Origin: a virus
DNA: 64,000 bases
Virus record (IMG/VR): IMGVR_UViG_3300043777_000086
Location: 1 to 64,000 of that record
Strand: one strand, 5' to 3'
Within the stretch, counting starts at the first letter, position 1. The number at the start of each line of letters is the position of its first letter. The notes under the pieces were generated by a model that saw only the letters and a list, made by a program, of their open reading frames with translations, was not told the DNA's origin and did not search any database. A program made the translations under genes and the position numbers. Positions 2,774 through 22,739 of the stretch are shown one piece after another.

Positions 2774-3255
2774 TGAAGTTAATCGCATTGACTAAGGGCT
2801 ATTACGCCCAGGTGGACGATGAAGATTTTAGTACTTTATCTCGCCATAAGTGGTATGCGCGAACGCAGGTATTTTCAAAAACCGGCAGGGTGAGCGTGTA
2901 TGCGGCACGCAGAGATCATGGCAGGTACGTGTCTATGCACCAAGTCATCCTTGGAATCAAGAACGTGGACCACGAAGATGGCGATGGATTGAATAATCAG
3001 CGCTACAACCTCAGGCCATGCACTAATTCCCAAAATATAGCGAACCAGGAGCCAAGGGGAGGCAAGTACTCGCGCTATAAGGGCGTAACGTTTAGCCTAA
3101 GGGACAAGAAATGGATCGCCCAGATAACAGCAAACAACACCCACAGGTTTATTGGATTGTTTAAGGAACAGGCCGATGCAGCGCAAGCCTACAACCTAGC
3201 AGCCTTTGAGGTTTTTGGGGACTTTGCTCGATTGAACCAGACGGTGCCGAGATGA
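2770..3255 (+). CDS. HNH-AP2 homing endonuclease
   Basis: VDHEDGDGLNNQRYNLR HNH motif followed by SRYKGV...KWIAQI...AAQAYN AP2 domain. Confidence 0.92.
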   Translation: MMKLIALTKGYYAQVDDEDFSTLSRHKWYARTQVFSKTGRVSVYAARRDHGRYVSMHQVILGIKNVDHEDGDGLNNQRYNLRPCTNSQNIANQEPRGGKYSRYKGVTFSLRDKKWIAQITANNTHRFIGLFKEQADAAQAYNLAAFEVFGDFARLNQTVPR

Positions 3256-18591: not shown

Positions 18592-18989
18592 GGTTGATGG
18601 CCGCGCTACTCTTCGCGGCCCTTCCACTATGGGAGCAGGACCACCCGCCGAAGGTCTCTGCGGCCCTTCTGAGCCCGCACGCCGTCCAGGACCGCATCGT
18701 GGCCGCCGCCGGCCCGCGGCTGGCACCACTGGCGCTGGCGATAGTGGCGCGGGAGAGTGGATTCGACCCCAGTAAGCTCTCTGATACTGATGATGGTGGC
18801 CTATTCCAGCTTCACCGATCTACTGCCGCGTGGCTGGGTGTTGTGGATTGGCTGGACCCGGATCAGAACATTGCAGGTGGCGTCAGGCTGCTGCGTGAGG
18901 GGTTTGAGATCTACGGCACCGACCGCGGGGCGGCGTGCTACTTCGCCCACCCCGCGCGGTGCAAGTTCGAAACCGGATCTACGGAATAA
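18588..18989 (+). CDS. lytic transglycosylase (SLT) with hydrophobic N-terminus
   Basis: ARESGFDP catalytic Glu, GLFQL, DPDQNIAGGVRLL. Confidence 0.85.
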   Translation: MRLMAALLFAALPLWEQDHPPKVSAALLSPHAVQDRIVAAAGPRLAPLALAIVARESGFDPSKLSDTDDGGLFQLHRSTAAWLGVVDWLDPDQNIAGGVRLLREGFEIYGTDRGAACYFAHPARCKFETGSTE

Positions 18990-19524
18990 CGACAATCACC
19001 AGGTCTTTGCGCGGAGCTTTGGACCCCAAGCTGTCGCTGGCTTCGACCGCGAATGGAACCGTCCCCGGCTGCGTCGGCGTACCGGTGATCACCCCACTGT
19101 GCGTGTCGAGGCTCAGCCCTGTGGGTAATGAACCCCCCAGCCTGGCGAGTGTGATCGTGAATGGACCCTGCCCGCCGGCGACCATGATCGCCGCGTTGTA
19201 GGCATCCCCCACCTTAGCGTTCGGCAGCTTGGTGGTCATGATCTCCATGTGCTCGACCGGATGCGGGTGCGGAGGAAGCGGCTGCGCCGGGACCTTGAGC
19301 ACATCACCCGGAACCGACACAAAGATTTCCCCGCCCTTGATCTCGGTTGACTTGGTGCTGAATACTTCCATCAGCCCCAGCGGGACTGGTTCGATCGTGG
19401 TGGGCGCTTCTGGATCTTCCGGGGGCGGCTCGATCTTGGCTTTGGCCGCCAGCTCCGTAAGTGTGTAATGCCCCGGCGGGACCGTGTAATTCAGCCCGTC
19501 AATCGTGATCTGCACTTCTTTCAT
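18979..19524 (-). CDS. multi-ubiquitin-like domain fused to a putative Ig (He_PIG) domain
   Basis: VQITIDG..L..GGEIFVS N-terminus; TTKLPNAKVG..GSLPTGLSLD..GVITGTPT Ig signature. Confidence 0.7.
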   Translation of the reverse strand: MKEVQITIDGLNYTVPPGHYTLTELAAKAKIEPPPEDPEAPTTIEPVPLGLMEVFSTKSTEIKGGEIFVSVPGDVLKVPAQPLPPHPHPVEHMEIMTTKLPNAKVGDAYNAAIMVAGGQGPFTITLARLGGSLPTGLSLDTHSGVITGTPTQPGTVPFAVEASDSLGSKAPRKDLVIVVIP

Positions 19525-20309
19525 TGGACCCCCTCGTACTTGATAGTACTGCGAATCAATTCTCCGTCCGAGAACCCAGGCTCATCCCATTGGGAGATTA
19601 TCCAGATCTTCCCTTCCGGCGCCAACTTCCCGGTAGTCACGCACAGAAACGGATCGGGTTTGACGGTCTCGTAGTCGGAGACCATAAATACGGCGTCGGG
19701 CATCTTCTCGAGTACCGCCCCGATCGTAGCTAGAACCCCAGCCGGGATCTTCTGGGCGTACTGCTTACTCTCCACGGTTCCCATGCCGGAACGTTGACTG
19801 ATCCACCCTCCTGGAGATACCGCGGCAATCGCGTGCATATCTGCCTCGCGCATCGGCTTCCATACCCAACGCGTGTTCGGGTTGATTTTGTATGCCTGGT
19901 CGAACAAGTACTCGTCGACTTTATTGAAGTCGTAAACCTTCAGTCCTAGATCTGAGATTGCCATAGTCAACCTAGCTTCGTCGGTCGCCGCGGAACTGAG
20001 GCCGATCGATGCAGCCAGCTTGAGGTAGGTAGAGGGCGCAAGCGCTGTCGCCGGCAGGGGTTTGGCTGAGTTGCGAACCAGTGCGATCGTCATAAGTGGG
20101 GTTTTTGGTTTGCGGGTATTGCCGACGACGCCTGCGCCGCTGATTATCATCCCATTATTGTCGACCCAAACAGCGTTACTTGCATTGTTCCATGTAGCTG
20201 TTATAGCTCCAGCGGTGCCGCTACTACCCCCGCAGGGTCCGGAGCACGTCAATGTCGTCTGTCCAAACGCTGTGAGCGCCAGAGCCAGAATTCCGATTGC
20301 AATTTTCAT
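19521..20309 (-). CDS. signal-peptide protein with C-terminal DPFL...WDEP phage domain
   Basis: MKIAIGILALALTAFG-Q; AGGAG RBS. Confidence 0.75.
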   Translation of the reverse strand: MKIAIGILALALTAFGQTTLTCSGPCGGSSGTAGAITATWNNASNAVWVDNNGMIISGAGVVGNTRKPKTPLMTIALVRNSAKPLPATALAPSTYLKLAASIGLSSAATDEARLTMAISDLGLKVYDFNKVDEYLFDQAYKINPNTRWVWKPMREADMHAIAAVSPGGWISQRSGMGTVESKQYAQKIPAGVLATIGAVLEKMPDAVFMVSDYETVKPDPFLCVTTGKLAPEGKIWIISQWDEPGFSDGELIRSTIKYEGVQ

Positions 20310-20391
20310 GATTTTCTCCTGTGTAGGCCCGACGCTTCGGTAGACTTCGGAGCGCCGGGCCGCCTCGCTGCTTACGGTATTGATTTAGACT

Positions 20392-21608
20392 ATGGGAATT
20401 ATATACATGAGTACAGATTTTGAAGGCTTACGCCCGCAGCGCTCATCCCGAGCGCAGAAATTCCTAGTTGCAAGATGTTAAGCGCGGCGTTGTGATCGCG
20501 GCCAAGTTCAAGGCCGCAGTTAGGACAAGAATGGACGCGTTGCGAGAGTTTTTTAGAAACAGGCTCTCGGCAATTACTACAACGCTGCGAGGTGCCGCGT
20601 GGATTGACTGCAACAACATGCACACCAGCGTATTCTGCTTTGTATGCGAGTTGAAACAGCACGATTCCCCATGCGGCATCCATGATTGATTTATTAAGGC
20701 CGCGCTTCTGCGCGACATTCTTACCAGGGTTCTCGACCGTACCACTGGCTGATCGAGTCATGTTTGTGATCGCCAGATCTTCGTGAACGATGAGATCGTA
20801 AGCAGCCACGAGTTCCTTGGATTTGTGATGCAGGTAGTTAAGCCGCGCATTGGCGGCTTTCTGATGAGCGCGCCTGAGAGCCTCACGTGCTCTGGCCCGA
20901 TTCCGCGAGCCCCGCTTCTTGGTCGCTAACGCTCGGTTCTTTTCAGCGATGTTGTCTTCATAGTGCTTGGTCCAGCGCGGATTGTCGATCACTTGACCGT
21001 TGCTCAGCGTCGCGAGCGTGGTCAGCTCGACATCGATGGCGGTGGCGCGCGATATAACGCGCTTGGGCGGCGCTTCACCGATGTCGCAGACAACCGACGC
21101 TGTCCAGCGCTTCCCTTCGCGCTTAACGGTACATACCTTGGCTTTGCCGTTAATCAGCCGGCCGCCCTTTGCGCGAATGTCCCCGACATTGGGGATCTTG
21201 ATCGAGCGAGCGCGCCATGTCGGCAGGCTAAACGCGAAGGAGTCGTACCGCGCCCGCGCTCTGAATCTAGGGAATCCGGGTTTTTGACCTGATTTGCATC
21301 GACGAAAGAAAGCCCTGAAAGCGAGATCAACTCGCCTCAGCGGGTCGCGCATGATGTCGCACGCCATCCATCGAAAGCGTTCGTCTTGGCGAAGTTCGGT
21401 CAGTTCCACCTGCTGGTCATAGTACGAGACTGACTTTTTATCGTACTTGTACGCGTTGATCCTGTGTTCTAGACACGCGTTGTACGTCTCGCAATTGTCC
21501 GCGAGAATGCGTTCCAGCATAGCGGTTTGGCTCGCGTTGGGCTTCAGGCGGAACTGAAAAGCTCTAAGCATTCTACGACTTCGCTGTACTTAAGTATATA
21601 AGTCCCAT
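20392..21608. mobile_element. tnpB-only element bounded by 25-bp imperfect inverted repeats
   Basis: 20392-20416 ATGGGAATTATATACATGAGTACAG versus reverse complement of 21584-21608 ATGGGACTTATATACTTAAGTACAG (22/25). Confidence 0.7.
20399..21571 (-). CDS. tnpB: TnpB RNA-guided nuclease (solo, no tnpA)
   Basis: N-terminal RAFQFRLKP HTH, GFPRFR, RuvC-I AIDV, RuvC-II HEDL, CSNC/CPNC Zn finger, RuvC-III RDHNAALNI. Confidence 0.95.
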   Translation of the reverse strand: MLRAFQFRLKPNASQTAMLERILADNCETYNACLEHRINAYKYDKKSVSYYDQQVELTELRQDERFRWMACDIMRDPLRRVDLAFRAFFRRCKSGQKPGFPRFRARARYDSFAFSLPTWRARSIKIPNVGDIRAKGGRLINGKAKVCTVKREGKRWTASVVCDIGEAPPKRVISRATAIDVELTTLATLSNGQVIDNPRWTKHYEDNIAEKNRALATKKRGSRNRARAREALRRAHQKAANARLNYLHHKSKELVAAYDLIVHEDLAITNMTRSASGTVENPGKNVAQKRGLNKSIMDAAWGIVLFQLAYKAEYAGVHVVAVNPRGTSQRCSNCREPVSKKLSQRVHSCPNCGLELGRDHNAALNILQLGISALGMSAAGVSLQNLYSCI

Positions 21609-21622
21609 CAGGATCATGGACG

Positions 21623-21805
21623 CTACTTCCCCAAAATCATCGGCACGAATTCCATACCGAACAGCCAGAAAGCTAGCCCGGCTGAAATGAACGTAGGGTA
21701 ATAAGGCTGCGGAGCAGACCACCACCACCTCGACCCCACACCCAGAATAAAGCATCCAAGCGCGAAGCAGTACGCTAGCATCGAAAGAACAGGAGGTTGG
21801 ACCAT
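21623..21805 (-). CDS. small 2-TM membrane protein
   Basis: AAGGAG RBS; two hydrophobic segments. Confidence 0.7.
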   Translation of the reverse strand: MVQPPVLSMLAYCFALGCFILGVGSRWWWSAPQPYYPTFISAGLAFWLFGMEFVPMILGK

Positions 21806-21864
21806 AGGAAACTCCTTACGGATCAAGCGTATCACCAAGTTCCGACCGAGGCAATGAAATAATC

Positions 21865-22025: not shown

Positions 22026-22100
22026 GACGCCCCCTCCTGTACAATACTTGACCACAAAAATTTCAGGTTAAATTTGTCCGAGTTCGGACATGGAGGCTCT

Positions 22101-22739
22101 ATGCCCACGGAAGATGACATTGACGAACGGATACGCGAGCAGCTATCGAAGCGCGCGGATATATTCCGTCTTTCTGATTCAGAAAACCCATTCATGAAGG
22201 CCGCTAAGTTGATATGCCTAGTGGATGAACTTTTGGATTTTTACAATGAGACAGTGCGTGAACTATGGAAACTTGGATACAACCAGTTTCCAGAGGCGGA
22301 CGGCGTTTCTGGATTTGACCTCACTGAAAGAGGTGGTTGTATGTCGTTTTCATCTAAAGACATCCTAGGGATGCTCGCTGATGGTCCTAAGAAACAAGCG
22401 TTTATGTGGCTTGAGAATGAAGTAGAAGCTGAAAGACGGCGCCGGGCGGACGCTAATCCTAAGCGACAAAAACCGCCGATTAATTGGCGTCGGCGCATCG
22501 CTAGGAGGTTGGGTTATGAGCCACAGGAGTGGGTGTGTGTCTACTGCCGGAAGTCTGGTGACTGTGAGCTTGGGCCTGACGGGCGTCGTTGGCATGTGGA
22601 CCACATGTACCCTCGCGTTCATGGTGGTGATGATAAAAAAGACAATAAAGCCCTATCCTGCGCTAGTTGCAACCTTAGTAAAAATTCCAGGACCGCTACG
22701 GAATTCCTGGCGGGAGACAAGAGGGAGGTTGTCCAATGA
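22101..22739 (+). CDS. HNH endonuclease
   Basis: CVYC..HVDHMYPRVHGG..N...SCASCNLSK; GGAGG RBS. Confidence 0.88.
   Translation: MPTEDDIDERIREQLSKRADIFRLSDSENPFMKAAKLICLVDELLDFYNETVRELWKLGYNQFPEADGVSGFDLTERGGCMSFSSKDILGMLADGPKKQAFMWLENEVEAERRRRADANPKRQKPPINWRRRIARRLGYEPQEWVCVYCRKSGDCELGPDGRRWHVDHMYPRVHGGDDKKDNKALSCASCNLSKNSRTATEFLAGDKREVVQ

Follow-up and report, generated by a model that had tools for sequence, protein, structure and literature searches.

The window analysed here is a stretch of 64,000 nucleotides (nt) of viral DNA, positions 1 to 64,000 of IMG/VR record IMGVR_UViG_3300043777_000086, which is a complete virus genome of 106,152 bp with direct terminal repeats; its subject is a lone tnpB gene bracketed by two inverted repeats of about 25 bp. 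Sequence comparison identified these repeats as terminal inverted repeats (TIRs) that belong to IS1595-family DDE transposons of a lineage carried by phages, and the locus is very probably a phage-borne IS1595-type TIR cassette that carries an intact TnpB and is moved by a borrowed transposase. The cassette, its ends and its gene are as follows.

20394..21606, minus strand: whole non-autonomous IS1595-type cassette with tnpB as sole gene, placed by the limits of similarity and by the 8-bp duplications of relatives, which abut GGGA/TCCC.
21584..21606, minus strand: left TIR, on the 5′ side of tnpB, equivalent to the left inverted repeat (IRL); outer to inner GGGACTTATATACTTAAGTACAG, against an IRL consensus of 23 transposase-bearing elements of GGGAATTATATACTTGACTCCC.
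20394..20416, plus strand: right TIR, equivalent to the right inverted repeat (IRR), holding the tnpB stop codon; outer to inner GGGAATTATATACATGAGTACAG, identical at 23/23 positions to both TIRs of element L202.
20399..21571, minus strand: tnpB, 390 amino acids (aa), a predicted catalytically intact RNA-guided nuclease by Pfam, NCBIfam guided_TnpB (248 bits) and alignment with ISDra2 TnpB.

The first-pass annotation of this DNA had reported inverted copies matching at 22 of 25 positions around tnpB, and the same match was recovered between arms 20392-20416 (+) and 21584-21608 (-), the sole such pair in the window, against no matches in 100 shuffles. One arm contains the tnpB stop codon (20399-20401) and 12 nt separate the other from the ATG, in agreement with the geometry described there. 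The repeats are thus real, and only their 25-bp boundaries had to be moved. Independent copies cease to be alike beyond GGGA at the left end and TCCC at the right, so that family-wide comparison puts the true termini of the window cassette at 20394 and 21606 (1,213 bp); the extra AT outside each terminus is peculiar to this copy. Both ends are GG-initiated (GGGAnTTATATAC...). The cassette is single-copy, its TIR pair is the only one genome-wide, and no sigma-70-like promoter is predicted inside it. Searches of the complete 106,152-bp genome gave no match to Y1 TnpA (PF01797), in line with the absence of tnpA noted earlier, nor to serine recombinase (PF00239) or IS1595 transposase (PF12762). 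Since the complete phage encodes no IS1595, Y1 or serine transposase, the cassette is non-autonomous.

Ownership of these ends was established by scanning viral contigs for the pattern GGGAHTTATATACWTRA, which occurs in at least 120 stretches. Among the matches listed, 70 inward-facing TIR pairs are spaced 275-3,509 bp apart, and perfect 8-bp target-site duplications (TSDs) flank 46 of the 64 pairs that do not hold tnpB; at least 23 TSD-flanked pairs enclose a homologue of a protein of ~305 aa, whose start typically lies ~50-70 nt inside one end, and at least 17 are miniature inverted-repeat transposable elements (MITEs), empty shells of 275-700 bp with the same ends. The duplicated sites are strongly A/T-rich and the flanks GC-normal. 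All six ~305-aa representatives scanned (L246, L232, L248, L184, L202 and L373) matched Zn_ribbon_IS1595 (PF12760) and DDE_Tnp_IS1595 (PF12762), or NF033547 at 190-201 bits. An 8-bp TSD, a zinc finger with DDE_Tnp_IS1595 and GG-initiated ends are traits of the IS1595 family (PMC8101967). The transposase-bearing L202 carries the sequence of the window's right arm, without a mismatch, at both of its ends. The inner end of the TIR differs by subfamily (CTCCC, CTTCC, CTACC or GTACAG), with one variant at both ends of an element. A slight IRL/IRR asymmetry of the transposase elements (ACTTGA versus ACATGA) recurs in the tnpB cassettes, which argues that tnpB holds the place and orientation of the transposase gene. 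The ISfinder consensus of ISNwi1, ggnnatTAT, is compatible with GGGAATTAT. No element with both tnpB and transposase was found among these loci; on one phage contig (G004), a tnpB cassette and an IS1595 transposase (312 aa, with a related end) lie ~10 kb apart. The same shells also carry other cargo: an N4/N6 methylase with an MvaI/BcnI endonuclease (L184:11188-13766), PAPS-reductase-like genes (L232:1849-3765 and L202:1971-3852) and a lone methylase (L230:7602-8425).

The relatives of the window gene carry the same ends. Whether homologues lack the repeats had been set beforehand as a test of the first-pass proposal; the motif GGGAnTTATATAC(A/T)T(G/A)A... was found on either side of tnpB in other viral contigs and in a single Terriglobia metagenome-assembled genome (MAG), the homologues being 47-67% identical and sharing a geometry in which the left arm lies 3-25 nt before the ATG and the right arm runs across the stop codon. 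TnpBs at 45% identity or less are without the motif. Perfect 8-bp TSDs lie directly outside GGGA/TCCC in four of these cassettes (L082, CTAAGAAT; L006, AATTAAAT; L016, AAAGTATA; L023, AAAAATAT), and the flanks of L291 match at 7/8 positions. The L082 cassette (in L082:2279-4867, on a 1.27-Mb Terriglobia contig) cleanly interrupts a peptidase gene, with DPPIV_N/PD40 upstream and Peptidase_S9 (E 2e-50) downstream, and removing it together with one repeat copy restores the peptidase reading frame. L082 is the sole close chromosomal copy, in a MAG of the Terriglobia (Acidobacteriota), and there are hints that phages bearing this TnpB clade infect soil Acidobacteriota; the same MAG holds one partial IS1595 match and no further TIR pair. 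Recombinase genes adjoin none of the clade members, and a second pattern scan for further tnpB cassettes returned 9 loci only, mostly already known. Of the modes of movement that the first-pass annotation had considered, mobilisation in trans by a DDE enzyme is the one that these results favour, given the IS1595-family TIRs, the 8-bp duplications in relatives and a transposase encoded elsewhere.

The encoded protein comprises HTH_OrfB_IS605, OrfB_IS605 and a Cas12f1-like TNB zinc ribbon (Pfam), and its best model match is of IS200/IS605 type. The alignment with ISDra2 TnpB (8EXA; E 7e-49) runs the whole length of the protein, which retains both CxxC pairs of the CxxC..CxxC finger and the RuvC D/E/D residues, which sit in AIDVE, VHEDL and GRDHNAALNI; the earlier reading of the triad, including the unusual AIDVE at RuvC-I, agrees with this alignment. 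In a maximum-likelihood tree all TIR-bearing TnpBs form one clade (support 98/95) with TIR-less members nested within it, a pattern that suggests, from the sequences, that tnpB was captured once and that the ends later decayed in part of the clade. The TnpBs P0020 and P0031, on contigs of ~106 kb, are 67-68% identical to that of the window.

The predicted omega-RNA overlaps the 3′ end of tnpB in an ordinary layout, with its last stem common to the TIR, so the atypical RNA suggested by the first-pass annotation found no support. Its parts are listed in 5′ to 3′ order.

20439..20455, minus strand: stem 1, GCGCUC-GGGAU-GAGCGC; 4/6 pairs compensatory in 16 sequences, 99% of cells paired.
20421..20438, minus strand: stem 2, from RNAfold, conserved in all clade members.
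20417-20424, minus strand: linker UUCAAAAU, (U)UCAGAAU, after stem 2, conserved in all clade members.
20402..20415, minus strand: terminal hairpin of the scaffold, UGUAC-UCAU-GUAUA, in which the right TIR supplies its TATATA core as the 3′ strand; this second helix has 92.5% of cells paired, with AU to GC compensation in L288 and L291.
20394..20401, minus strand: unpaired tail of the scaffold, UAAUUCCC, which is the outer end of the right TIR; (U)AAnYCCC in all TIR copies and, by eye, RAGUYCC where the TIR has decayed.
20374..20393, minus strand: predicted guide, AUAGUCUAAAUCAAUACCGU, the 20 nt of flank that directly follow the scaffold, placed by the scaffold layout and by the Deinococcus loci L120 and L121.

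Two hairpins had been put forward as parts of this RNA. GCGCTC-GGGAT-GAGCGC is stem 1, which is conserved and covaries, swapping to AGGCUC/GAGCCU in other copies, whereas GGCCCG..CGGGCC belongs to the phage flank outside the element. After the linker every TIR-bearing copy folds a terminal hairpin with the 5′ strand (C/U)U(A/G)UAC and an optional inner stem; the 3′ strand is the inner right TIR, including its GUAUAUA core, and is followed by the unpaired tail (U)AAnYCCC. RNAalifold, applied to 16 sequences, found stem 1 and the outer terminal stem, with 96% of cells paired and 6 pairs changed on both sides, and none of 500 shuffles reached the observed two-helix covariation score. The inner stems vary in sequence and are still paired (L003, GACUC/GAGUC; L006, CUUCC/GGAAG; L002, UUUCC/GGAGG; L023, CUACC/GGUAG; L293, CUCCC/GGGAG; L285, CGUGAUU/AGUCACG). 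In L288 and L022, which have lost the TATATA core on both strands, the pairing persists along with an AAGUCCC/GAGUCCC tail. At the right end of the Deinococcus loci L120/L121, an equivalent UUCAGG precedes a further ~70 nt of scaffold, which closes with a hairpin; a tail of 9 nt and then the flank come after it. No Rfam family matched the scaffold at E ≤ 1. On these comparisons the balance tips slightly towards a scaffold that extends to TCCC with a guide in the adjacent flank (window 20393 downwards); since the unpaired tail is the outer end of the TIR, the guide would most likely lie in that flank.

Some copies depart from this plan. In L004:2069-2098 and L005:4102-4131 (compared with L003:4085-4110), a 22-bp palindromic 'solo TIR', GGGAGTCATCTATATAATTCCC, with an 8-bp duplication, AATCTATA, on its two sides, is inserted directly after the omega-RNA linker of a cassette that is otherwise L003-like; a micro-MITE and a minimal footprint of IS1595 are the two explanations for it. 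Three others (L006:2851-3000, L002 ~2860-3000 and L014 ~2835-3000) have an extra open reading frame (ORF) of 45-60 aa between the left TIR and tnpB, which follows a TTGACA-N17-CATAAT promoter and encodes an AT-hook-like GGRPRG motif and CxxC...H...C, with a weak, below cut-off match to Pfam zf_C2HC_14 (E 0.003). At L040:2946-4185 a TnpB of 41% identity lies within a different, perfect 24-nt inverted repeat, GGTAGTGGCTCAACATGGTGTTGA, in the same geometry and with no clear TSD; another TIR transposon may here have captured tnpB independently, for a second time.

Several observations weigh against the account given so far, some of them concerning the cassette and others its RNA. The window copy has no TSD, as the first-pass annotation had stated, its outer 8 bp being ATCCTGAT and ATAGTCTA, and a perfect TSD is kept in only 4/16 tnpB cassettes. 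An empty site for the window copy was not found, as the flanking 262-aa protein and a nearby helicase have no relatives in viral contigs and blastn against GenBank phages returned nothing. No conserved target-adjacent motif precedes the TSD in five insertion sites (GTAC, CAGG, GTAG, ATGG and CATG); a G at -1 in 4/5 cassettes, against 37% in the background, is not significant. The 5′ strand of the terminal hairpin resembles a partial inverted copy of the TIR, so that TIR symmetry rather than selection on the RNA could supply part of the covariation. Finally, L013 has ~30 extra, unrelated nt exactly after the linker, and a guide starting there fits equally well. This last point is shared by a different reading of the same cassette, in which the linker closes the scaffold and a fixed stretch inside the cassette comes next and serves as the guide, in the window the right TIR itself; such a guide would be constant, with TIR-bearing DNA or a rival element as conceivable targets. 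TIR-less relatives do lose similarity directly after CAGAAT, and L004/L005 tolerate a 30-bp insertion after the linker. A guide would not stay a stem, though, and the post-linker hairpin is conserved with compensatory changes and outlasts the TATATA core in L288 and L022; the Deinococcus relatives, moreover, keep ~70 nt of scaffold after their UUCAGG. The 16-nt post-linker sequences, as candidate fixed guides, have no convincing target outside their own right ends in the compared loci, except that the window's resembles other TIRs. A fixed guide is, on the whole, unlikely.

Other readings concern the cassette as a whole. It could be a stranded relic, transposed once, no longer mobilisable and inherited only vertically, with or without TnpB activity. 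Its missing TSD, 3 arm mismatches, single copy, transposase-less genome and lack of a predicted internal sigma-70-like promoter all fit this reading, which is nevertheless doubtful, given that the right arm is identical at 23/23 positions to the ends of a transposase-bearing element, that the ORF, catalytic residues and scaffold stems are all intact, and that a similar IRL/IRR asymmetry occurs in TSD-bearing elements. It is highly improbable that the gene is a domesticated, immobile phage TnpB (a TldR-like regulator) or part of an invertible segment with its repeats serving as operators or recombinase sites. Its phage location, single copy and lack of a nearby transposase would suit either, and both had been raised in the first-pass annotation, but neither drew support: the catalytic triad is intact, TSD-flanked copies occur at unrelated loci, a host gene among them, no serine invertase is encoded in the genome, and the repeats do not recur there as operators would. 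Nor is it credible, beyond a very slim chance, that this is an ordinary IS200/IS605 (IS1341-type) solo tnpB with repeat-like end hairpins, served by a Y1 TnpA in trans, even though the arms are partly palindromic in most relatives (GGGA...TCCC) and TnpB is nearest to IS200/IS605-type models. The arms are inverted, not direct, and the window copy loses the intra-arm palindrome and keeps the inter-arm match; the genome has no Y1 gene, and identical ends occur on IS1595 DDE elements. The TIRs and perfect 8-bp TSDs of the lineage are incompatible with IS200/IS605 or IS607 mechanics. IS607 mobilisation was also rejected for want of a PF00239 match in the genome and of a recombinase adjoining clade members, and a phage promoter repeat was rejected because the genome contains just two occurrences of the motif.

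Under the preferred reading, a TnpB cassette with borrowed mobility, movement would depend entirely on an IS1595 transposase that acts in trans and recognises these ends. The enzyme could come from the host, from a co-infecting phage or from a co-resident element, and the ends of L202-type elements are identical. The guide would be the DNA just beyond the right end (TSD plus flank), and each DDE-mediated insertion would then re-programme the nuclease, by analogy with IS605 elements and eukaryotic Fanzor1. The cassette could cut element-free alleles in co-infecting phages and then be copied in by recombination. The missing TSD of the window copy points to an exchange of flanks once the cassette had inserted, or else to recombination as the route by which it arrived. 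Retention of TSDs is lower in tnpB cassettes than in pairs with other cargo (4/16 versus 46/64 among the matches listed; Fisher p = 0.001), and the mismatching flanks look random rather than decayed, which fits an exchange of flanks by recombination where the element ends, perhaps set off by the nuclease; alternatively, the tnpB insertions are older. A fuller model, offered tentatively and at rather less than even chances, is that the 3′ module of the omega-RNA has become fused to an IS1595 right TIR, that insertion automatically loads the guide, and that the transposase-less cassette homes by cut-and-copy into element-free alleles of co-infecting phages.

Around the cassette, three features of the phage flank are of note.

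21626..21808, minus strand: 60-aa hydrophobic ORF, the upstream neighbour, from the ORF list; its stop codon (21623-21625) is 16 nt from the left terminus.
19521..20309, minus strand: 262-aa phage ORF with function unassigned, the downstream neighbour, with no PHROG or Pfam family.
20326..20361, minus strand: GC-rich hairpin in the phage flank, beyond the termini and outside the cassette, with nothing alike in the flanks of other copies and no T-run after it.

The GC-rich hairpin lies 12 nt past the predicted guide and 16 nt before the start codon of the next gene. A terminator-like hairpin with a T-rich tail (window 21640-21660, minus strand) is located within the 3′ end of the 60-aa ORF; if it is a functional terminator, tnpB would need a promoter of its own, and none is predicted. 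An HNH endonuclease gene (PHROG HNH / endonuclease VII matches; window 22074-22739), 470 bp off the cassette, adjoins a primosomal protein gene and is a second gene of selfish-nuclease type in the same replication module. Two genes downstream of the cassette, a 181-aa ORF (window 18979-19524) contains a He_PIG putative Ig domain (E 1e-13).

Associations of TnpB with DDE transposases have been described previously. Altae-Tran et al. 2023 (PMC10691335) reported six DDE-associated TnpB branches (DDE-1 to DDE-6) that have inverted terminal repeats, with the 3′ end of tnpB at most 250 bp from the end of the transposon; they also reported solo TnpBs that share these ends and are likely to be moved in trans. 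The DDE partners named are IS630 (PMC10691335) and ISL2, IS630 and IS1031 (2026 review, PMC13565253); IS1595 is not named as a TnpB partner in the main texts of either. The window system resembles these branches, as presented there, in having tnpB within symmetrical inverted ends, a 3′ end near the transposon end and solo copies that share the ends of transposase elements; it differs in its IS1595 partner, in that tnpB and transposase were never found in one element, in a lineage that is almost entirely phage-borne, and in a last scaffold hairpin common to the TIR. With IS1595 elements of the ISNwi-like group it has in common GG-initiated TIRs, 8-bp A/T-rich TSDs (in the lineage), passenger genes and MITEs, whereas the window element is without a transposase, has an RNA-guided nuclease as its only gene and, in this copy, lacks a TSD. 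TnpB architecture, catalytic residues and an omega-RNA over the 3′ end of the gene are as in the IS1341 group of IS200/IS605 and in ISDra2. IS200/IS605 elements, as outlined in the review, have neither TIRs nor TSDs and move as single strands by Y1 TnpA, and IS607 likewise has no TIRs or TSDs (PMC13565253); this lineage, in contrast, has TIRs, 8-bp TSDs and a DDE partner. Fanzor1 offers a further likeness, as a TnpB-family nuclease in cut-and-paste transposons with TIRs and TSDs, unrelated to IS605, with its RNA beside the transposon end. The window system differs in being prokaryotic and phage-borne, with a compact TnpB and no transposase in the same element, and the comparison is one of analogy, with no claim of descent. 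The advance is therefore incremental: the general principle is already published, and what is new here is the family of the partner, the setting in phages and the overlap of TIR and scaffold.

Taken together, these findings mean that an RNA-guided nuclease can leave its IS605/IS607 home for a DDE shell in bacteria and phages, an arrangement best known from the eukaryotic Fanzors. They point to a junction at which a predicted transposase binding site and the scaffold of a guide RNA use the same bases, and to a phage-borne lineage of IS1595 elements that carries nucleases, methylases and restriction systems from one phage genome to another. Compact TnpBs with a guide after a short fixed tail (AAnUCCC) may be of use in engineering. 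If true, the fused scaffold/TIR and homing would make the cassette the phage counterpart of Fanzor1, and homing would explain why tnpB cassettes lose their TSDs more often than shells with other cargo do.

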